A stretch of 64,000 nucleotides of DNA from an uncultured Gammaproteobacteria bacterium (GTDB lineage Bacteria > Patescibacteriota > Patescibacteriia > UBA2196 > GWA2-42-15): NCBI GenBank assembly GCA_964573135.1, contig CAZNIO010000007.1:117-64116 (forward strand), given 5' to 3'. Under the pieces are notes generated by a model. The model ran no database searches. It worked only from the letters and a program-made list of their open reading frames with translations, and had not been told where the DNA came from. The stretch's first letter is position 1; every line of letters begins with the position of its first letter. Shown here one piece after another: positions 10,371 through 64,000 of the stretch. Position numbers and translations under genes: made by a program.

Positions 10371-10746
10371 ATATTTGTGCGTTGTTTAATGTGTCTATAT
10401 AATTTTCAGTGGCTTTCTTTATTTCTGCAAGGGGAGTTTTATTAGTTTTCTTTAGAAAAGCATGCAGTAGAATAACATTTTTTCCTACAAGAGTAAAATA
10501 GAATATACTATGATGGTTGCGACTAAAATCAATTCTTAATTCCCTAATTTTACCCTTAATATGCTTAGCATAAGGTTCATCTAAATACCCTTTATGTATT
10601 TGCAAAAACTCGATATATTTTAATACTTTTGCTTTATTTTTACTATCAAGCTTCTCAATATATTCTAAAACAGGAATCTTCTTTGTAACGGAACTCTGAT
10701 AAAATTTTACTTTATAATTTGAGCTCCCGTTATTATTATATATCAT
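10363..10746 (-). CDS. RelE/HigB-like toxin of the Gp49 (DUF891) family.
   Basis: The FYFTLVGKNVILLHAFLKKTNKTPLAEIKKA C-terminal signature shared with the 19242-19559 ORF. The toxin-first, XRE-antitoxin-second order is typical of HigBA. Confidence 0.65.
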   Translation of the reverse strand: MIYNNNGSSNYKVKFYQSSVTKKIPVLEYIEKLDSKNKAKVLKYIEFLQIHKGYLDEPYAKHIKGKIRELRIDFSRNHHSIFYFTLVGKNVILLHAFLKKTNKTPLAEIKKATENYIDTLNNAQIYG

Positions 10747-10773
10747 ATATGATATTATGTCAAATAGTACATT

Positions 10774-13599
10774 TTATTTACATTCACCCCAATTTTTTCC
10801 AGTACCAATATCAGCCACAATGGGTACTTTGAACTTATGTACTGTTTCCATCTCGGTTTGTATTTCCCCGGATATTTTATTCACCAGGTCATCTCTTATT
10901 TCAAACACCAATTCATCATGTACTTGCATCACCATTCTCACTTCATCTTTTTTATATTTTTCCTCTATTAATTCATCTACAGTAATCATTGCCATTTTAA
11001 TCAAGTCAGCTGAAGAACCCTGCATCGGGTGATTGATGGCCATTCTCTCAGCTTGGGCTCGCATACCTTGATGTTCCGCATTTATTTCCGGCAAAAATCT
11101 TTTCCTGCCAAATAAGGTTTCAACATATCCCATATCGTGTGCTAAGACGATAGTCTCTTCTAAATATTCTTTTAATTCATGATATACTTCAAAATATTTT
11201 TCAATAAAAGCCAAGGCCTCGTCATACGTAGACCCTGTTCTTTGAGCCAATCCTCTTGCTCCTAAGCCATACAGAATTCCAAAGTTTACTTCCTTGGCTT
11301 TTCTTCGCATTTGAGGAGTTACTTTATCCATTTTTACATCAAATACCTCAGCCGCAGTTCTTGTATGAAAATCCTCACCCCTATTAAATGATTCAGTCAT
11401 TACCCTGTCTCCTGACATTACAGCTGCAATACGAAGTTCAATTTGCGAATAATCAATAGCAACCATTCTATATCCTTTTGGAGCAACAAAAGCTTGCCTT
11501 ACTTTCCTGCCCAATTCTGTGCGAATTGGGATATTTTGTAAATTAGGTTCAGATGATGATAACCTGCCAGTGGCAGTTACTGTCTGATTGTATGATGTGT
11601 GTATTCTTTTGTCTTTTGGATTCACGATTTCAGGCAAGGCGTCAGTATATGTGCTTTTGAGTTTTGACAATTCCCTGTGATTTTCAATCAAATCAATGAT
11701 TGGATGCATTCCTTTGAGTTTTTCAAGTTCTGAGGCCGCTGTTGATATACCTGTTTTAGTTCGTGCAAGTCCAGCAGTGGAAATATTCATTTTATCAAAT
11801 AAAATTTCCTTTAACTGGAGGGGGGAGCGCATATTAAATTCTACTCCTGCCATTTTGTATACACTCTTCTCTATTTTTTCTATTTCATTGCCAAGCTCAA
11901 CGCTCATTTTTTTAAGAAATTTTTCATCAATTAGTACTCCGTTTTTTTCAATATGAGCCAGTACAGAGATTAGCGGATTTTCTATCTTTTCCAAAAGTGG
12001 TCTTAACTTATTTTTTTCAAGCCTTGGACTTAAAGTTTTATACAACTGCCAGGTATAGTCAGCATCTTCTGCTCCATAGTCTGCCACTCTTTTTATATCC
12101 ACACTTTTCAAAGTAGTCTGCGCCTTACCTTTGCCTATTAGTGCCTCAATGGGTACCATGTCATGTCTAAACTCTGTAAATACCAGGGTATCCAGTTTAT
12201 GTCCCCTAGAGCCTGGATTTAGGAGATAAGAAGCGATCATTGTATCAAATTCAATTCCTTCAAGTCTAATATCTGCCTGCCAAAGGACTTCCAAATCAAA
12301 TTTTATATTATGTCCAATTTTTTTAATATTTTTATCTGCCAATATTCTTATTAACCTGCTATCTATTTTCTTATTTACCGGTAGATAGTAGGCCTTCCCA
12401 CTTTCCCACGCAAAGCTCATACCAATCAGAGTTGATTGCCATGGATCAAGTCCGTCAGTTTCAGTGTCCACTGCAAATTCTTTTTGTTTACTTAATTTTT
12501 CAATAAAATCATCCAGTTTTTTTTGTGAGTCTAATAGTATATACCCTTTTCTGATCTCGAAATCTTTTTCCACCTCATCTTTTTTATCAAACAACGAAAA
12601 CTGACCCTTGGTGATTGTCTTTTCTGCTTGAGGGATGCGCGCAATTAAAGATTTAAAATTCCAATCTTGGAAAAGATCGATCAGCTTATCAGTATCAAAG
12701 GCTTTTATTTTACAATCCTCTAAATCAAAATCCATTTCTACATCTTTGACAATAGTCGCTAATTCTTGTGATAAATAGGCTTTGTCTTTGTTGTCTTTCA
12801 ATTTTTCAAAAGCACCTTTTTTAATATTTTTTTCATCCAATATTTTTTTTAGCTCTTTTTCTTCTAGCTTTTTAGTACTTTCAACAAATTTATATACCTC
12901 ATCCAAAGATTCAAATTCTTTTATCAAATGTGTGGCTGTTTTTTCACCCACTCCAGGTACTCCAGGGATATTATCAGACGGATCTCCGCGCAACGCCTTA
13001 TAGTCCACTACTTGAGTAGCCTTAAACCCATATTTTTCTACCACACCTTTCTCATCATAAATTATAGTATCAGTTATGCCTTTTCTGAGTGTGTAAACTT
13101 TTGTGTTTTTATCAACCAGTTGCAGAGCATCCATATCTCCCGTCACTATCAAGCTATTAATATCTTTTACCCTGTGCACCAGTGTTCCAATCAGGTCATC
13201 AGCCTCATAGCCTTTTTTCTCAAATATTTTCATATTAAAGGCTCGGATTAATTCCCTTATAAATCCCATTTGATCATATAGCTCTTGTGGCCCCTTTTTT
13301 CTTTGGGCTTTGTATTCTTTATATATCTCATTACGAAAAGTCTTTCTGGCAACATCGAAACACACTGCAATATAGTCGGGTTTAATATCTTTTAATACTT
13401 TGAGTAAAATATTAGCAAAACCATAGACTGCATTAACAAGAACCCCATCTTTATTCTGAAGAGGTGGTAGAGCGTGAAATGCTCGATGGATAATAGCATT
13501 CGCGTCAATCACGGCGAATTTTTGTTTTTTCATATGTTTATTTTCTAAAAATATTTGATATGTCATCTTGTAAAATTGATATTTCTTGTATTGCCTCAC
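10774..13599 (-). CDS. polA: DNA polymerase I (5'-3' exonuclease + 3'-5' exonuclease + polymerase domains). The likely true start is Met at 13533 (MKKQKFAVID), which removes the overlap with the next gene.
   Basis: The motifs DYSQIELRIAAVMSGD, QVHDELVFE, RRKAKEVNFGILYG; the N-terminal FEN-like domain VIDANAIIHRAFHAL. Confidence 0.95.
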   Translation of the reverse strand: MRQYKKYQFYKMTYQIFLENKHMKKQKFAVIDANAIIHRAFHALPPLQNKDGVLVNAVYGFANILLKVLKDIKPDYIAVCFDVARKTFRNEIYKEYKAQRKKGPQELYDQMGFIRELIRAFNMKIFEKKGYEADDLIGTLVHRVKDINSLIVTGDMDALQLVDKNTKVYTLRKGITDTIIYDEKGVVEKYGFKATQVVDYKALRGDPSDNIPGVPGVGEKTATHLIKEFESLDEVYKFVESTKKLEEKELKKILDEKNIKKGAFEKLKDNKDKAYLSQELATIVKDVEMDFDLEDCKIKAFDTDKLIDLFQDWNFKSLIARIPQAEKTITKGQFSLFDKKDEVEKDFEIRKGYILLDSQKKLDDFIEKLSKQKEFAVDTETDGLDPWQSTLIGMSFAWESGKAYYLPVNKKIDSRLIRILADKNIKKIGHNIKFDLEVLWQADIRLEGIEFDTMIASYLLNPGSRGHKLDTLVFTEFRHDMVPIEALIGKGKAQTTLKSVDIKRVADYGAEDADYTWQLYKTLSPRLEKNKLRPLLEKIENPLISVLAHIEKNGVLIDEKFLKKMSVELGNEIEKIEKSVYKMAGVEFNMRSPLQLKEILFDKMNISTAGLARTKTGISTAASELEKLKGMHPIIDLIENHRELSKLKSTYTDALPEIVNPKDKRIHTSYNQTVTATGRLSSSEPNLQNIPIRTELGRKVRQAFVAPKGYRMVAIDYSQIELRIAAVMSGDRVMTESFNRGEDFHTRTAAEVFDVKMDKVTPQMRRKAKEVNFGILYGLGARGLAQRTGSTYDEALAFIEKYFEVYHELKEYLEETIVLAHDMGYVETLFGRKRFLPEINAEHQGMRAQAERMAINHPMQGSSADLIKMAMITVDELIEEKYKKDEVRMVMQVHDELVFEIRDDLVNKISGEIQTEMETVHKFKVPIVADIGTGKNWGECK

Positions 13600-56750: not shown

Positions 56751-58163
56751 TTATTCTTGTATTTTCTCTTCAATCTTTTCAGGTGCTTGAGGCAAAACCT
56801 CTTTTTTGTGTATACCTATGTTTTTTATAAACAGCCCCATCACTAAAAACCATAGATATATGCCAAAAGCAGAAGTGAAGAAATAGTGGTCAAATAGCAT
56901 TAAAATATATACGCATCCCATCGCTGACCCCATAATTAGCAGGGGTAAAGGATGGCCGGTAAATTGATCTTCTTTAGAAGCCACCAAGCGTGCCACAAAA
57001 TACATTAGAAGCAGAAGCATTGCTCCAGCGCCAAATACTCCCAGCTCAGTTGCTATGAGCATATATACATTGTGTACTGGCTGATATTCATAAATTAATT
57101 TTTTACTTCTATCCAAACGTCTTAATTCGTGTGTATAGTTACCCAACCCTATACCTTGAGGCCAGCTATTACGCGCCATATAGTAGGAGTTTTGTAAACT
57201 CGATACGCGTTCGGTATTAGAAACTTGTTCTAGCCTGCTTTCGCCAACAACTCTGGTTTTAACTGGTTGCCAAAAGACTGCCGTTAGAACTATCAATAGA
57301 AGTAATACCCAGGCACCCAGTGCTTTTGACAAGCGCTTGGTCTCATAAGTTGATTTTGAGGTAAAGACAAAGAATAAAAAACATATTGCCAAAACAAAGA
57401 CTAACCAAGCACTCCGTGAAAAAGTTAGAAATACCCCGGTGGTTAATAGGGTGAAGGCAGAGAAAAGAAACCATCGCTGATATGTTTTATCATTTTTAAG
57501 CACCAAATATATTAATAGGGCAAAAGCTACCACCAAAAACCCAGCCAAGATATTAGGATGGGGGAGGGATCCATAAGCTCGTAATAATCTCTCACTCCCG
57601 TATTCTATAACCGACTCACCGGTCAAGCTAGTACTTTTTTGTAAGGCCATACCTAACCACTTACTTTCAAAGACTCGATGCGTAATTACCTGCCAAATTC
57701 CCAAGACTGCCTGCAAGCAAGCCGCTGTAGTTAAAACAACAATCAATTTAATCTGCGAAAACTTTATCTTCCACACCAAGGAGAGGAGGATAAAGGCCAA
57801 TATGAAACGTATTAATAGGTAATATGCCATTTCTTGATTGTATGCCCAAAAATGAGCCGAATAGGCCATCACGCCGATTAATAGCAGGATGATTATAATG
57901 CCAATCGCCTCAGCCTTAGACATGCCAGTCGTAAATTTTATTTTTAAGCTGCGCGCTAGGAGAAAGAGGACAAACATAAGTATAAGCAGGATATCGAAAC
58001 CATACAGGCTCATACGGCCATATTCAAAAATATTTCCACCTATGCTTGAGTCTTTAAATATCCAGCGTGTCTGCCATGGAAGGAGGAAGACAAAAAGATA
58101 TAGCATCCACTCAAGTAGCTTGTTGAAAAATTTATCTTTTTTAGATAATTCAATTTGTTCCAT
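56751..58163 (-). CDS. O-antigen ligase / Wzy-like polysaccharide polymerase family membrane protein.
   Basis: About 12 TM helices with a large loop; pattern typical of the O-antigen ligase (Wzy_C) family. Confidence 0.55.
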   Translation of the reverse strand: MEQIELSKKDKFFNKLLEWMLYLFVFLLPWQTRWIFKDSSIGGNIFEYGRMSLYGFDILLILMFVLFLLARSLKIKFTTGMSKAEAIGIIIILLLIGVMAYSAHFWAYNQEMAYYLLIRFILAFILLSLVWKIKFSQIKLIVVLTTAACLQAVLGIWQVITHRVFESKWLGMALQKSTSLTGESVIEYGSERLLRAYGSLPHPNILAGFLVVAFALLIYLVLKNDKTYQRWFLFSAFTLLTTGVFLTFSRSAWLVFVLAICFLFFVFTSKSTYETKRLSKALGAWVLLLLIVLTAVFWQPVKTRVVGESRLEQVSNTERVSSLQNSYYMARNSWPQGIGLGNYTHELRRLDRSKKLIYEYQPVHNVYMLIATELGVFGAGAMLLLLMYFVARLVASKEDQFTGHPLPLLIMGSAMGCVYILMLFDHYFFTSAFGIYLWFLVMGLFIKNIGIHKKEVLPQAPEKIEEKIQE

Positions 58164-58297
58164 ATATATATTATACCCATGGGCTAATGTGAAAGCAAAT
58201 TTTTTATACTTTGGTAGAAAATTCCAGATTTCTTAATTGCTAGCTTTAGCTGAAATTATCTTATTTAGGGTATTAATTCCGATTTTTTACAGAAAAC

Positions 58298-58347
58298 AAT
58301 GATATAATGAACATAGATTAACAAAACTGTTAATGTTTATATCAAAT
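58298..58347 (+). repeat. Copy 1 of a 50-bp direct repeat comprising an AbiEi-type promoter (-10 TATAAT at 58303-58308), a 16-bp palindromic operator TTAACAAAACTGTTAA (58318-58333) and the ATG. Here it is followed by a scrambled 32-codon ORF remnant.
   Basis: 48/50 nt identical to 60564-60613, which precedes an intact AbiEi gene. Confidence 0.8.
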
Positions 58348-58486
58348 TATTACCTGTATTATTTTTATCATCGGTCTCCGAGTCTTTGTTTGTGCAATAT
58401 CCAGACAGTGAGGATAGCCAAAATATTATAGTTATATTGCTCAAAGGGGGCTTTTCGTCCAATAAAATACCGGGATTTATGACTTA

Positions 58487-59500
58487 TTGACAGAATACCG
58501 GGATTCCCGGTATAATTCAAGTATAGAACCCCTGGATAAATATATGAAAATACACTTCCCCAATAGTGCATTTATTGGAAATATCGACCCTTATCTACGA
58601 GGTATTGATTTTACTAACCGTGAAAAACTGGAAATTACAGCCAATGACAAATGGATTTCAGTTCATCCCATTGTTCTGTCCATTACGGCAGCCCTTGGAT
58701 TACCCATTAAACCGCAAGAAATAGATTGCAAGAGGCTTACGGCAACATCTACTCACTATCTTGAAAGAATGGGCTTATTTGATTTTTTGGGAATTGAGTC
58801 AGGTATGAAAATAGAGAAGCACGAATCAGCTGGACGCTTTATTCCGTTGACTAAGATAAATAATTCCAGCGAATTGACGGAGTTTATTAAAGATATGATT
58901 CCGCTTTTACATTTAGACCCTTTGCAGGCAGACTCCATAAAATACGTTGTAAGCGAATTGGTACGCAATGTCTTGGAGCACTCTCAATCAAAAATTGGAG
59001 CAATTATCTCCGCCCAATACTACAAGAAAAGCAATAAAATTAGAATAGGAATTGTGGATACAGGAGTTGGGATTAAGCAGACCATAGGAGAATCGCATTA
59101 TGCAGAGTCTGACTTGCAGGCCATTCGTTTAGCTCTTATTCCAGGTATCACCGGTACCACAAAAAAAGAGGGTGGCACAGAACTCAACGCTGGAGCAGGC
59201 CTATTTTTCATTAAATCTATTGCCAAAGTAAATCATGATTTTTTTATGATTTATAGCGGTGAAGCCATGTATAAGTTGCTCATTAAACATAGCGGAAAAT
59301 TGTTTGCTGACCCTCTTAAAGACAGGCATTCTATCAAAGAAGATTATCCATATTTCAATGGCACGGCTGTCGGAGTTGATATATCCCTAGATAGCAACAA
59401 AGAATTTTCCGAATTGCTTTCTCTTATCAGGGGTATTTATTCCAAAACTGTACGGGAAAGAAAAAAATCACGTTATAAAAAAAAGCCTAAATTTATATGA
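58487..59500 (+). CDS. GHKL-family (HATPase_c) ATPase, or RsbW-like Ser kinase, with a ~160-aa N-terminal domain of unknown function.
   Basis: N box ELVRNVLEHS, G1 box GIVDTGVGI, G2 box GTELNAGAGLFF. Confidence 0.6.
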   Translation: MTEYRDSRYNSSIEPLDKYMKIHFPNSAFIGNIDPYLRGIDFTNREKLEITANDKWISVHPIVLSITAALGLPIKPQEIDCKRLTATSTHYLERMGLFDFLGIESGMKIEKHESAGRFIPLTKINNSSELTEFIKDMIPLLHLDPLQADSIKYVVSELVRNVLEHSQSKIGAIISAQYYKKSNKIRIGIVDTGVGIKQTIGESHYAESDLQAIRLALIPGITGTTKKEGGTELNAGAGLFFIKSIAKVNHDFFMIYSGEAMYKLLIKHSGKLFADPLKDRHSIKEDYPYFNGTAVGVDISLDSNKEFSELLSLIRGIYSKTVRERKKSRYKKKPKFI

Positions 59501-59787
59501 AAATAATAAAACTACTTCCGCTTGTTGGAGAATTTGCTGAGAACAAAGATATTGCCCGTGATATCAGAATTAAACAAATTATTCCCTTTCTCGGAAATAG
59601 AGAACAGGTTGCAGTTGATTTCTCGGGAATAAGTTCAGCCACGCAGTCATTTATTCACGCTCTCATAAGTGATTTAATAAGAAAATATGACACAGATCTT
59701 TTCGATTTACTGCTATTTAAAAACTGCTCTCCCAATGTTAAAGGAATTATTAATATAGTTGTAGACTATATGCTTGAGAGGGATTAA
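59497..59787 (+). CDS. STAS-like (DUF4325-like) small protein, putative partner of the upstream GHKL ATPase.
   Basis: About 95 aa; FAENKDIARDIRIKQIIP...VAVDFSGISSATQSFIHALISDLIRKY pattern; 4-bp overlap with the upstream gene. Confidence 0.5.
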   Translation: MKIIKLLPLVGEFAENKDIARDIRIKQIIPFLGNREQVAVDFSGISSATQSFIHALISDLIRKYDTDLFDLLLFKNCSPNVKGIINIVVDYMLERD

Positions 59788-60529
59788 TAAACCAACAACC
59801 ATTATGACCTATAATCAAAAACGTAACTCCATTCTCGCTATTGTTATCTTTCTCGCCGGCCTACTTGCCGGTGGTCGTCTTTTGGTTAAAAAAATTGTTA
59901 TTATGAATAGCGAAGGAGCATCATTACACCAGGTTGTTGAAGTAATTGACGGTGATACTATTAAAATAGAGGGGAATATTCGGGTTAGGCTCTTAGGTAT
60001 TGATTCTCCAGAAGTCGGCGAATGCTATTATCAACCGGCAAAACGAGCGCTTGAAGATTTAATTGCCAAACAACGAATTGAGCTAGAAAAAGATATTACT
60101 GACAAAGATCATTATGGACGACTTCTGCGCTATGTGGCTTTGCCCGTTGAAAATGGAGATAGTATTCTTGTAAACGACTATTTAGTACGCAATGGTAATG
60201 CCCTGGCAATATCAAGTCCACCCAACAACAGGTATAGGGACCTATTTTCTTCAGCACAAGTTATTGCTAAAAGAAATAATTTTGGCTTATGGGGAGCTTG
60301 CGAGAATAATTACAGTAATGAAAGAAGAGAAGCCGATGCCGGTCCGCCCAATCCTGATTGTATTATAAAAGGAAATATATCAGAAAAAGGGTATGGTATG
60401 ACTTATTTAATGCCAGGCTGTGATAATTATGAAACAGTAAAAATTGATACTCGCAAGGGTGAAAAATATTTTTGTACAGAAAAAGAGGCTATAGAGGCAG
60501 GTTTTCGCAAAGCCACCAACTGCCCATAG
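59774..60529 (+). CDS. Membrane-anchored thermonuclease (staphylococcal-nuclease-like) with a C-terminal Cys-containing extension. An alternative start is Met at 59804.
   Basis: TM helix ILAIVIFLAGLLAGGRLLV; SNase core VVEVIDGDTIKIEGNIRVRLLGIDSPEV...YGRLLRYV. Confidence 0.8.
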   Translation: MRGINKPTTIMTYNQKRNSILAIVIFLAGLLAGGRLLVKKIVIMNSEGASLHQVVEVIDGDTIKIEGNIRVRLLGIDSPEVGECYYQPAKRALEDLIAKQRIELEKDITDKDHYGRLLRYVALPVENGDSILVNDYLVRNGNALAISSPPNNRYRDLFSSAQVIAKRNNFGLWGACENNYSNERREADAGPPNPDCIIKGNISEKGYGMTYLMPGCDNYETVKIDTRKGEKYFCTEKEAIEAGFRKATNCP

Positions 60530-60563
60530 CAATTTCCATGATCTATTGCTTTTTATTTAAAAT

Positions 60564-60613
60564 AATGATATAATGAATATAGATTAACAAAACTGTTAAT
60601 GTTTATGTCAAAT
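60564..60613 (+). promoter_or_regulatory. Copy 2 of the 50-bp repeat: promoter (-10 TATAAT 60569-60574), palindromic operator TTAACAAAACTGTTAA (60586-60601) and the start codon of AbiEi.
   Basis: Direct repeat of 58298-58347. AbiEi antitoxins are known autorepressors that bind inverted repeats in their own promoter. Confidence 0.7.
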
Positions 60614-61180
60614 ATCACTAAAAAAATACTAATTTTGGCTAATTCTGGCAAAACAGTTTTTTCTACGAACGACCTAGCTTTAATGTGGAAAATACAGGAT
60701 AAAAATACTTTACGAGTAATAATACATCGTGCCAAGCAAAGAGAGTACTTGGAGCCAATAAAAAAAGGGATATATAAATTAAACCAAAAAAAGGTAGATA
60801 TTTTTGAGTTAGCAGGAAAACTGAAGAAAAACTCATATCTTAGCTTTGAAAGCGTTTTGGCTCAAGCGGGCATTGTTCATCAATGGTATGATGAAATAAT
60901 CCTAGCTAGCAGTAGAAACCTATTTATTAATAATAAATACGGAAAATTTGTATATAGGCAATTGCCAGAAGGGATATTAGCTAATCGGCTAGGGATTGTT
61001 AAAAAAGATAATTACTTTATCGCCTGCCCAGAGAGAGCATTGTGCGACAAGGTATATAAGGATGGTTTAATATATTTTGATGACTTAGCATCTATCGATC
61101 GAGAGTTAATTTTAGATATTAGTCGAATGTATAATAAGCGAGTAATGTTAGATATTAAAAAATTGTTAGATATTAAATAA
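60599..61180 (+). CDS. AbiEi-family antitoxin / transcriptional regulator (type IV TA).
   Basis: N-terminal AbiEi_4-like domain ILILANSGKTVFSTNDLALMWK...LRVIIHRAKQREYLEPIKKGIYKL; immediately upstream of an AbiEii gene. Confidence 0.65.
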   Translation: MFMSNITKKILILANSGKTVFSTNDLALMWKIQDKNTLRVIIHRAKQREYLEPIKKGIYKLNQKKVDIFELAGKLKKNSYLSFESVLAQAGIVHQWYDEIILASSRNLFINNKYGKFVYRQLPEGILANRLGIVKKDNYFIACPERALCDKVYKDGLIYFDDLASIDRELILDISRMYNKRVMLDIKKLLDIK

Positions 61181-61187
61181 TTTCTCT

Positions 61188-61913
61188 ATGCATATAGATA
61201 AAACTGAACACAAGAAAGTTATGCTGAATATTTTGGCTAGCATCTCTTCCCATCCTCTACTGTCTACCAGTCTAGGCTTTAAGGGCGGCACTTGTTGCTA
61301 TTTTTTATATGAGCTAGATAGATTCTCTGTTGATTTAGACTTCGATTTATTACAAGAACAAAAACAAGATGAGATACTTAGCCAACTCGATAAGGTATTA
61401 AAAAAACACGGTGAAACGAAAAAAGAAGGCAATGTTTTTTCTCGCAAGGTTAAATACCATCCTGAGTCCAGCACGATTAAGATTGATATCTCTAATCGTT
61501 TTGATATTAATAAATTAAATACATATGAAGTTAAAGATATTGTCTCTGCTATCCCATTTAATATTCTAGATAAAAAAGATATCTTTGCTCATAAGTTAGT
61601 CGCCCTAGAAGAAAGGTACGCTGACAAAACCTCTTTCAAGACAATAGCCAATCGTGATTTGTATGATATCTATTTCTTTTTTGAAAAAAAATGGAATTTT
61701 AACCCTGAAATTATTAAGCTACGCACAGGAAAAACCGCCATAGAGTACTTAAGAAATTTAAAAATTTTTATTGAGAAAAAGGTTGACGAAAAAAAGATTT
61801 TAGAAGGACTGGGCTCTTTACTAGACGAGAAAAAGAGACATTGGGCAAAAAAGAACTTGAAAAAAGAAGTTATTAAAAAATTAGCTATACAAATAGAAGC
61901 CATGGGCGAGTGA
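61188..61913 (+). CDS. AbiEii/AbiGii-family nucleotidyltransferase toxin.
   Basis: LGFKGGTCCYFLYELDRFSVDLDFD matches the GGTAL...R.S.DlDF motif. Confidence 0.7.
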   Translation: MHIDKTEHKKVMLNILASISSHPLLSTSLGFKGGTCCYFLYELDRFSVDLDFDLLQEQKQDEILSQLDKVLKKHGETKKEGNVFSRKVKYHPESSTIKIDISNRFDINKLNTYEVKDIVSAIPFNILDKKDIFAHKLVALEERYADKTSFKTIANRDLYDIYFFFEKKWNFNPEIIKLRTGKTAIEYLRNLKIFIEKKVDEKKILEGLGSLLDEKKRHWAKKNLKKEVIKKLAIQIEAMGE

Positions 61914-61932
61914 GTGCAGTAAAAAAATATTT

Positions 61933-62688
61933 ATGAAATTTAATAAATCACAAATGCCAAAGCATGTTGCTATAATGCTAGATGGCAATCGTCGCTGGGC
62001 TAGAAAGCATGGTCTAGCAATCATACGAGGCCACCAGCAGATGGTTCGTGAGAATATAGAAAGATTAATAGACCATAGTATTAAGAGGGGTATTAAATAT
62101 CTCACCCTGTGGGTTTTTAGCACTGAGAATTGGGGGAGAAGTAAGTTAGAAATCAATGGACTCATAAAATTATTTCGTGAGATGTTCATGAAAAATGCAG
62201 AAAGAATACATAAGAGAGGTGTTAAGATTAATATTATTGGAGATATGAGTAGATTTCCAAAAGATATTCAGAAAAAGACAGTGGATTGGGTAGAAAAAAC
62301 AAGTAAGAACAAAAAATTTACTCTAACTTTTGCTATGAATTATGGCGGTAGAGATGAAATTTTACGAACTGTTTCTAAATTAGTGGCCAGCTTTATTAAT
62401 GATGAAAAAAAATTAAGCCAACTCAAGGAGAAAGCTCAGCGTGTGGATAATTCGACCAAGCTGTTTTCTGAAGAGTTATTTACTGGCTTGCTTGATACCC
62501 ATGATTTGCCAGACCCAGATATTATCATCCGACCCGGAGGAGAAAAAAGGATGTCTGGATTTATGCCTTGGCAGGCTGTTTATAGCGAGTTTTATTTTAC
62601 AGATGTTTTGGCTCCGGATTTTGATGAGGATGAATACGATAAGGCTTTGATGGAGTTTGCCAAAAGACACAGAAGAGTTGGGAAATAA
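61933..62688 (+). CDS. uppS: Undecaprenyl-diphosphate synthase (cis-prenyltransferase).
   Basis: HVAIMLDGNRRWA; FSTENWGRS; C-terminal RxG motif. Confidence 0.92.
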   Translation: MKFNKSQMPKHVAIMLDGNRRWARKHGLAIIRGHQQMVRENIERLIDHSIKRGIKYLTLWVFSTENWGRSKLEINGLIKLFREMFMKNAERIHKRGVKINIIGDMSRFPKDIQKKTVDWVEKTSKNKKFTLTFAMNYGGRDEILRTVSKLVASFINDEKKLSQLKEKAQRVDNSTKLFSEELFTGLLDTHDLPDPDIIIRPGGEKRMSGFMPWQAVYSEFYFTDVLAPDFDEDEYDKALMEFAKRHRRVGK

Positions 62689-63303: not shown

Positions 63304-64000
63304 ATGGAACAAAAATATACAAATTTATCAAAAAAAGAGTTAAAATTAATTGAAAATCTTCTTTTAGAAAGAAGGAACATAATAGATTTTGAAACTATCT
63401 ATAACAAATTAAAAAAACAAAAAAGCAGACAATCAGTTAGGAATTTTGTGGCAGAGATGGTTAAAAAGGGGTGGCTCATAAGAATCAAGAAAGGAATTTT
63501 TGAAATATCCGATATTGCCGGTAGGGGGTCAAGTAGTTTATCACAATTAGTTATTGCTCAAATTATAGATCCAAATTCTTACATATCATTTTTTGGTGCC
63601 TTGCAACACCATGGTATGTTTGATCAATATTTGCAGACGATTACCTCGATAACACCGAGGAAGAGCCATCAGAAAAAATTTCATAACTGGAATTTAAAAT
63701 TCATTAAGTCAAAGAAGGGGCTATTTAACGGATATAGAAAAATCAAAATCAATAATTACTATGTTAAAATTGCAGATGCAGAGAAAGCCATTTTGGATGC
63801 ATTGGCATATCGAGTAAATACTGCCAACATCGATTTGGTTTTAGAAAAAATCAGGGAATACCGAAGAAATTTAAATATTAAATATTTACTTCAAATTAGT
63901 AAAAATTATCCCATTAAAACTAAACGAATACTTGGTTTTTTATTAGATATCAATAACGTTAATACCCAAGAATTTTATCAGCAAACAAGAAGTCGGGTAG
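63304..64000 (+). CDS. Second AbiEi-family antitoxin-like gene, 3'-truncated by the window end.
   Basis: Open frame from ATG 63304 to the window end: MEQKYTNLSKKELKLIENLLLERRNIIDFETIYNKLKKQKSRQSVRNFVAEMVKKGWLIRIKKGIFEIS (AbiEi N-terminal pattern). An upstream inverted repeat GGTTTAAT-N17-ATTAAACC (63245-63277) surrounds a TATAAT box. Confidence 0.55.
   Translation, partial: MEQKYTNLSKKELKLIENLLLERRNIIDFETIYNKLKKQKSRQSVRNFVAEMVKKGWLIRIKKGIFEISDIAGRGSSSLSQLVIAQIIDPNSYISFFGALQHHGMFDQYLQTITSITPRKSHQKKFHNWNLKFIKSKKGLFNGYRKIKINNYYVKIADAEKAILDALAYRVNTANIDLVLEKIREYRRNLNIKYLLQISKNYPIKTKRILGFLLDINNVNTQEFYQQTRSRV

Follow-up and report, generated by a model that had tools for sequence, protein, structure and literature searches.

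The DNA analysed here is a 64,000-nt stretch of contig CAZNIO010000007.1 (assembly GCA_964573135.1). We refer to this whole 64-kb stretch as the window, and all positions are window positions. Between 58284 and 61913, it carries a two-gene cassette, a gene for an SNase homologue and an operon of the abiE type, whose promoter and start region is present in two copies, one on each side of the cassette and the SNase gene. We named the two proteins of the cassette K (a STAS+GHKL kinase-like protein) and S (a DUF4325/STAS protein), and the cassette itself K-S. The features of the region are as follows.

58284..58347, + strand: direct-repeat copy 1, an orphan duplicate of the abiE promoter, putative operator and start region, with TGATATAAT at 58300-58308, TTAACA-N4-TGTTAA at 58318-58333 and an ATG at 58333 followed by the rest of the first 5 codons
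58348..58465, no strand: junction segment of 118 bp with no recognisable homology
58466..58543, + strand: control region of the cassette (half-site, -35, palindrome, -10)
58468-58476, + strand: upstream half-site TACCGGGAT of the control region
58487-58492, + strand: -35 element TTGACA, with a spacer of 18 to TATAAT
58496-58512, + strand: 17-bp palindrome TACCGGGATTCCCGGTA, between -35 and -10
58511-58516, + strand: -10 element TATAAT, overlapping the right arm of the palindrome
58544..59500, + strand: K, 318 aa, with an N-terminal STAS-like domain, a GHKL serine-kinase domain and a basic C-terminal helix
59497..59787, + strand: S, 96 aa, a single-domain STAS-like protein (DUF4325), with a 4-bp ATGA overlap with K
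59804..60529, + strand: SNase homologue, 241 aa, with an N-terminal hydrophobic anchor, an SNase domain and a C-terminal Cys-rich 'sunset' domain
60550..60613, + strand: direct-repeat copy 2, with the abiE promoter TGATATAAT at 60566-60574, the inverted repeat at 60584-60599 and the abiEi start
60599..61913, + strand: abiEi (60599 or 60605 to 61180) and abiEii (61188-61913)

K has 3146 homologues, the top 120 of which are 67-100% identical despite belonging to widely divergent lineages. Magasanik-, Moran- and Falkowbacteria, Woese-, Nano- and Aenigmarchaeota and Actinobacteria are found among the homologues. For a survey of their genetic environments, we took one genome per species, found 265 K loci and kept 80 of them for neighbourhood counts. 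K-S loci span bacteria of the Candidate Phyla Radiation (CPR), DPANN and other archaea, Elusimicrobia and Actinobacteria, at 60-84% identity. S directly follows K in 78 of the 80 loci, the remaining two being contig ends, and 72 loci show the 4-bp ATGA overlap; K and S are thus predicted to be translationally coupled through this overlap. No third gene is conserved with the pair in the 80 loci. The neighbours belong to 184 Pfam families across 125 neighbours, with no more than three neighbours per family, and a minority of them match defence models. Downstream genes lie on the same strand in 41 cases and on the opposite strand in 36. AbiEi and AbiEii are found near K-S in two and three of the 80 loci, respectively, and both AbiEi cases are on the opposite strand; SNase is found in none. 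The closest relatives are bare pairs, one 84% identical near dnaA/rnpA, one 82% identical between ruvC and yebC and one, also bare, at 80% identity. The original prediction had proposed a triad of K, S and SNase as the functional unit, and the lack of SNase both at 80/80 related loci and in these 80-84% identical relatives speaks against it. Conservation at the nucleotide level extends from the upstream half-site (~58466) to the stop codon of S (59787): homology to the other loci begins only at ~58466, to the right of the 118-bp junction, and no conserved sequence was found downstream of S in the comparison of K-S loci. With its own promoter and a conserved palindrome, the segment 58466-59787 forms a two-gene cassette that is self-contained and horizontally mobile.

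The promoter of the cassette, TTGACA-18-TATAAT at 58487-58516, is the sole 12/12 match to the sigma-70 consensus within 58100-62000. The K-S cassettes have a palindrome in common, TACCGGGAWTCCCGGTA, which is embedded amid σ70 elements in bacteria and stands beside a TATA box in archaea. Of 77 loci, 59 have its strict core, CCGGGAWTCCCGG, in the 200 nt preceding K (68 when the pattern is relaxed), at stereotyped positions of ~-56 and/or ~-25 relative to K. The strict palindrome has four matches in 881 kb of flanking sequence and one in the whole window. It is found upstream of K only, with none downstream of S. Among bacterial loci, 33 of 40 harbour TTGACW-N15-19-TRNWMT and none a TATA box, whereas in 33 of 39 archaeal loci the ATG is preceded, at 29-33 nt, by TTTATWWA, and sigma-70 elements are absent from all 39. 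This dichotomy by domain shows that binning errors do not account for the bacterial and archaeal labels. The -10 element ends 5-14 nt before the ATG in 25 of the 33 bacterial promoters, and the archaeal TATA boxes are so spaced that transcription would start at about the ATG of K; based on these spacings, most K-S copies are probably leaderless in both domains. A phage-borne subfamily (45% identity) carries a different 20-nt inverted repeat at the same position, a swap that is the pattern expected of a cognate operator. With a consensus promoter and palindrome of its own, 200 bp downstream of copy 1, the cassette should not need copy 1 for its expression.

We assign the start of K to ATG 58544, which gives a protein of 318 residues (homologues, 317-321). 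TTG 58487 was ruled out as a start. With this correction, the N-terminal region, previously described as an unknown domain of 160 residues, spans residues ~1-125 and is STAS-like. K begins directly with it, and the domain search matched no helix-turn-helix (HTH) family in the protein. An RsbW/SpoIIAB-type GHKL serine-kinase domain comes next, followed by a basic C-terminal helix (~284-318) that is specific to the family. The N, G1 and G2 boxes reported earlier were recovered in K, as SELVRNVLEH (N box, with E138 and N142), DTGVGI and NAGAGLF. Matches of K to HATPase_c (E 5e-5, 24.1 bits, gathering cut-off 26.4) and HATPase_c_2 (E 7e-5, 23.2 bits, gathering cut-off 27.4) fall just below threshold, and NCBIfam yielded sub-threshold SpoIIAB and KinD matches only for K and S. 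Nevertheless, most close homologues of K have precomputed PF13581 matches, and the GHKL fold is borne out by these homologues and by structure comparison, with SpoIIAB, RsbW and SiaB as the best structural matches.

S is a DUF4325 protein as predicted (Pfam E 2.9e-12, 46.6 bits, gathering cut-off 23), and its AlphaFold model, with a predicted local distance difference test score (pLDDT) of 95.3, has a STAS fold. The best solved relative of the S profile by sequence is Escherichia VapS (9z7o, E 1e-3). Residues T49, Q50 and S51, at the start of helix 2, are invariant. The protein ends with the STAS fold at 96 residues; VapS has 116 residues, of which 94-116 form a functional tail. In the literature, we found three passing mentions of DUF4325 only, and PADLOC gave no system-level match for K or S.

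Two DNA-damage-sensing systems with related kinases have been described (PMC13373217). CapK (HTH-STAS-GHKL), activated by single-stranded DNA (ssDNA), phosphorylates CapS, a STAS protein with a winged HTH (wHTH), which de-represses the adjacent immune operon (PMC13373217). VapK (STAS-GHKL) phosphorylates the antitoxin VapS (STAS), freeing the PIN toxin VapC (Chambers et al., EMBO J 2026, PMC13373217). Activation of the kinase by ssDNA involves a conserved aromatic residue, W68 in CapK and F54 in VapK (PMC13373217). Using the sequences given in the appendix of that paper, we found K to be homologous to VapK (hhalign 94%, E 1e-7) and to CapK (91%, E 1e-6). K has an invariant Trp, W37, after strand 2 of its STAS-like domain, in a position like that of CapK W68, in a region where the automatic alignment is unreliable. 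CapS S54 aligns with S51 of S in a hand alignment anchored on a conserved Phe. The structural matches to SpoIIAB, RsbW and SiaB and the homology to CapK/VapK and VapS uphold the initial analogy with partner switching between an RsbW-like kinase and a STAS protein. Judging from these relationships, K-S appears to be a minimal, cross-domain variant of the CapK/VapK kinase-STAS systems, of a kind not seen without an effector before.

How the cassette came to lie where it does can be approached from the repeats that enclose it. Comparison of the window sequence with itself delimits a 64-nt direct repeat of 91% identity (58284-58347 vs 60550-60613), within which the 50-nt core originally noticed (58298-58347/60564-60613) is indeed identical at 48 of 50 positions, with a start-to-start spacing of 2266. 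The 41-nt core pattern occurs exactly twice in the window and in none of 100 shuffles. The identical structure is found in independent ENA, JGI and NCBI assemblies and is therefore no assembly artefact. Of the promoter previously called in it, the -10 element stands, as an extended -10 (TGATATAAT), and a good -35 is absent. What had been described as a perfect 16-bp palindrome, TTAACAAAACTGTTAA, really consists of two 6-bp arms (TTAACA and TGTTAA) separated by a 4-nt spacer that lacks symmetry (6+4+6). Within the window, it is found at the two repeat copies only. A search of 57900-61300, which covers the repeats and the leader, against Rfam returned no RNA element at E<=1.

Copy 2 precedes an intact abiEi, and we read it, as did the original prediction, as the putatively functional abiE promoter, operator-like repeat and start. 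The two genes that follow match the PADLOC models for AbiEi (3e-34) and AbiEii (6e-50), the second also Pfam AbiEii (3.5e-17). Their order is that of AbiE systems, the AbiEi regulator followed by the AbiEii nucleotidyltransferase, with the inverted repeat as a putative operator inside the promoter, and 60599-61913 is predicted to be a type IV toxin-antitoxin pair and the target operon of the insertion. The start of abiEi is probably the second ATG, 60605, as in its orthologues. Two such orthologues, of 77% and 60% identity and in unrelated contexts, have kept the upstream extended -10, the arms of the inverted repeat and the start, with a variable spacer between the arms. As the motif is native to abiE elsewhere, copy 2 is the original and copy 1 the duplicate. 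The homology between the copies ends past 'TCAAAT'. The 32-codon open reading frame after copy 1, initially considered a scrambled abiEi remnant, has only its first five codons in common with abiEi (MFISN vs MFMSN); no abiEi homology was detected past codon 5 downstream of copy 1, and this reading frame is thus a junction rather than a remnant.

To place this duplication in context, we compared the 600 nt upstream with the 600 nt downstream of K-S, on the same strand, in 78 loci. Flanking repeats of 26-101 bp, with 78-100% identity and 49-141 bits, are present in 12 of them (~15%). The control comparisons reached at most 33 bits when the downstream region came from another locus and 39 bits when the orientation was inverted, and with 4-kb flanks no control attained 40 bits. 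The repeats adjoin the cassette closely and are made of local sequence. In L028 (102-187/1587-1672) and L031 (7853-7898/9295-9340), the duplicated sequence is the promoter and start of the downstream gene with 15-20 of its codons; in L023, it is the 3' end of the upstream gene, and in L026 (4940-5012/6433-6505) a whole tRNA-Val. The upstream copies in these other loci are decaying gene fragments. The ends of the inserts vary, from 0 to 95 nt to the left of the first operator site and from 1 to 100 nt to the right of the stop codon. No repeats, or marginal ones, were detected around the closest K-S relatives and the phage loci (17 bp in L106), and we found no paper on long duplications around such modules. 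In the window, the insert (58348-60549) consists of the 118-bp junction, K-S and the SNase gene; it is bounded by the duplication, which would have regenerated the intact abiEi, and so matches the pattern of the other loci. Since at least 12 other K-S loci have flanking duplications of local sequence and the motif is native to abiE, the repeat of the window is most plausibly a long target duplication, with copy 1 read as its upstream half. Between the two histories originally offered, capture of the abiE promoter or an abiE operon with its 5' end disrupted and duplicated, the evidence thus favours the latter.

Taken together, we consider it fairly probable, for mechanism and history jointly, that K-S, characterized by its promoter, its palindrome and its homology to CapK/VapK-VapS, was inserted with the SNase gene into abiEi, duplicating 64 bp. 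The mechanism is drawn by analogy with CapKS/VapKSC and SpoIIAB-SpoIIAA. By that analogy, K would be activated by ssDNA and would phosphorylate S at T49 or S51. A product of the cassette would bind TACCGGGAWTCCCGGTA and autoregulate the operon, the leading candidates being a K dimer, through its basic C-terminal helix, or a K-S complex. No effector gene accompanies the pair, and the output is therefore most likely K itself, which would act on a target shared by bacteria and archaea, S being its antitoxin-like substrate and buffer. K-S would then be a toxin-antitoxin-like, abortive-infection-type or addiction module. As for its history, the cassette, with 118 bp on its left and the SNase gene on its right, would have entered codons 5-6 of abiEi. 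Copy 2 would still serve abiE, and copy 1 would be a relic promoter-operator pointing into the insert.

Several observations weigh against this reading. The structure model of K is only moderately confident (pLDDT 64.5). The residue of S that aligns with the phosphoserine of VapS, S48, is the invariant Gln Q50, and the phospho-acceptor must then be T49 or S51, if there is one. No recognisable DNA-binding domain was found in K or S, which makes the binder of the operator a guess. The downstream repeat copy of the window follows the SNase gene rather than S; the insertion must have carried this gene along, or the history was more complex. Alternatively, given its orthologues adjacent to abiE in L121 and L123, the SNase gene may be a resident of an insertion hot spot. 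The insert junctions have no conserved termini, no recombinase gene explains the duplications, and about 80% of the K-S loci lack a flanking repeat. Lastly, we found no empty-site variant: exact look-ups of AbiEi and of the Wzy_C protein encoded upstream returned only the same arrangement or broken contigs, with breaks inside K or SNase, and a metagenome scan with AbiEi returned nothing.

The arrangement of the window invites other explanations, in which the cassette acts on, or is controlled by, its neighbours. It is rather unlikely that copy 1 has become an AbiEi-repressed promoter that drives or boosts K-S and SNase, tying the cassette to the state of abiE. The copies do not differ in the extended -10 or the inverted repeat (100% identity), both substitutions in the core falling elsewhere; the abiEi orthologues keep the arms and vary the spacer, as for an operator; and copy 1 is co-directional with K-S, with no predicted terminator in between. 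However, a recent duplication explains the identity of the copies equally well, K-S has a full-consensus promoter and an operator of its own, and the decay of the upstream copies at other loci is at odds with capture. Moreover, no other K-S locus has an abiE promoter upstream, and the AbiEi genes near two of the 80 are on the other strand. AbiEi may nonetheless control read-through from copy 1. We find it improbable that K, S and SNase form an analogue of VapKSC in which S would hold the nuclease inactive until K freed it by phosphorylating S. Their order mirrors that of VapK, VapS and VapC, only 16 nt and no separate promoter separate S from SNase, and SNase matches the PADLOC candidate-defence model C3a212 (9e-19). 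Against this stand the absence of SNase from the related loci, the 12 metagenome contigs with SNase orthologues (57-64% identity) and no adjacent K-S, and the lack in S of the C-terminal tail by which VapS inhibits VapC. In addition, the anchor and the 'sunset' domain suggest that the catalytic domain of SNase is probably outside the cell, beyond the reach of S.

Quite improbable, in our view, is a tandem abiE remnant, two head-to-tail operons in which K-S and SNase replaced the coding part of the upstream one. Three abiE-type pairs occur in a row at this locus, so amplification or accumulation of abiE does take place here. These pairs are divergent paralogues that do not have the promoter motif in common, though, and the scenario requires that exactly the stretch between codon 6 and the next promoter was deleted or replaced. 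Neither abiEi nor abiEii remnants were seen in 58348-58465 or 60530-60549, and at least 12 other K-S loci with unrelated local duplications would be left unexplained. The lowest probability, a very small one, goes to a CapKS-like controller regulating the downstream SNase and abiE genes upon DNA damage. K is homologous to CapK, and CapK and CapS control adjacent immune operons via palindromes that overlap promoters. Nevertheless, S lacks the wHTH that is the repressor part of CapS and K the HTH of CapK, the palindrome is present once in the 64-kb window, upstream of K only, and the downstream neighbours of K-S are unrelated, with about half of them on the opposite strand.

On the preferred reading, that of a K-S insertion into abiEi, the SNase gene is probably a bystander rather than a conserved partner of K-S. 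It may have travelled with the insertion, or it may have been resident at a place where small modules accumulate. A broader proposal combines mechanism, regulation and history. It would make K-S an undescribed interdomain selfish or defence cassette, a complete sensor-effector unit of ~1.3 kb found at 60-84% protein identity across domains. One operator, exchangeable sigma-70 and TATA elements and mostly leaderless genes would render it portable, and it would enter genomes, like other small modules, abiE among them, without an element-encoded recombinase, leaving long variable duplications that regenerate the interrupted gene. We put this proposal forward tentatively, as possible but doubtful in its entirety.

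The relationships of K-S to known systems can be set out as follows. With VapKSC it shares the STAS+GHKL architecture and homology of VapK, a DUF4325/STAS partner with VapS as its best solved sequence relative, the order K then S, and a scattered distribution on mobile elements and near defence genes. Unlike VapKSC, it has no VapC or other conserved third gene (0/80; SNase is third in the window), S is devoid of the inhibitory C-terminal helix, K has an additional basic C-terminal helix, and an invariant Gln aligns with the phosphoserine of VapS. The conserved 17-bp palindrome, a putative operator, and the presence in archaea also set K-S apart. With CapK-CapS, it has in common a homologous kinase core, a 'HYLERMGLFxFL'-type motif in the STAS-like domain, the pairing of a kinase with a STAS substrate and palindromic sites that overlap the promoter. 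In contrast with that system, K has no HTH and S no wHTH, no co-directional downstream operon is conserved, and the operator is TACCGGGAWTCCCGGTA rather than TTAA half-sites. SpoIIAB-SpoIIAA, RsbW-RsbV and SiaB-SiaC likewise have a partner with a STAS fold, and by analogy the same chemistry can be expected, phosphorylation of a serine where helix 2 of the STAS domain begins. K differs from their kinases in having a further, N-terminal STAS-like domain, the pair comes without an associated sigma factor or phosphatase, and K-S is mobile and found in archaea. To our knowledge, archaea have no sigma factors.

K-S also resembles type II toxin-antitoxin systems, in that two short, apparently translationally coupled genes have a palindrome, the putative operator, inside their own promoter and show a patchy distribution, with phage and plasmid copies and co-located ParE, Zeta and AbiE modules. 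The likeness is one of organization only, as no known toxin or antitoxin family includes K or S. The insert lies between direct repeats of local sequence, as transposons and casposons lie between their target duplications and integrase islands between their att repeats. However, the K-S repeats range from 26 to 101 bp and are different at each site, and the insert has no fixed ends, no terminal inverted repeats and no transposase, Cas1 or integrase.

The CapK/VapK kinases were described only in 2026, and always as regulators or triggers attached to an effector; here, the kinase-STAS core stands alone. CPR bacteria and DPANN archaea, the smallest cells known, carry it very widely, and it hardly differs between bacteria and archaea. 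If the pair suffices for a phenotype, it would represent a minimal form of the signalling module, with a target common to both domains, and the conserved palindrome offers a directly testable handle on it. The long variable duplications, for their part, provide an entry to the question of how small modules enter streamlined genomes while sparing the genes that they hit.

The SNase assignment itself was confirmed (Pfam E 2.8e-13, above the cut-off). Its hydrophobic N-terminal segment is preceded by Lys and Arg residues, and the protein is probably membrane-anchored with its catalytic domain outside the cell. Orthologues of 58-63% identity adjoin unrelated abiE pairs in L123 (3709-5729), in the gene order AbiEi-AbiEii-SNase, and in L121 (1276-5556), in arrangements unlike that of the window. 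The three abiE-type pairs in a row lie at 60599-61913, at 63304-64000, truncated at the window end, and beyond the window (L012:8706-10285 and 10536-11940), interleaved with uppS and a DUF3795 gene; the TTAACA-N4-TGTTAA promoter motif is present in the first pair only. Independent assemblies of the population (L196-L198, L002/L013, L015/L016) break in K at ~aa 140-160 and in SNase at ~aa 7 and ~aa 145-155. These breaks probably reflect near-identical cassette or SNase sequences in co-occurring organisms.

In four loci, repeats enclose K-S together with other small modules: L060 (9616-10103), L093 (2825-3316), L061 (4717-7764) and L091 (9311-12824). The additional genes in L060, L061, L091 and L093 code for RHH+ParE, a Zeta-toxin-like protein, AAA_14/DUF4143 with AbiEii and an SNF2 helicase, which suggests that these loci are repeat-bounded mini-islands. 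In L111 (4740-4870, 6293-6490), an abiE module of Moranbacteria is flanked by direct repeats of 109 bp (87%) and 37 bp (92%) that contain the start of the next gene. Long duplications may thus be general for small modules in these genomes and not restricted to K-S.

K-S also has links with mobile elements. Annotated relatives in phage and plasmid collections are partial only and 26-32% identical, and distant K-S relatives occur on plasmids. K-S relatives are present in PHROG families 3364 and 5816, without assigned function, the latter being a K-S fusion, and in the Marinitoga phage MPV1 a pair annotated as "histidine kinase" and "anti-sigma factor" adjoins the integrase gene. The only PADLOC match of K and S is to positions 74-248 and 327-389 of the model PDLC02567 ('DrmA', 1750 positions), which indicates that a K-S-like module is fused to the N-terminus of some DrmA-like helicases. 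Full-length K-S pairs of 44-45% identity are encoded on three IMG/VR contigs, and in one of them (L098:8001-9250) the pair (45% identity) has its own promoter and forms a moron between tailed-phage head and tape-measure genes.

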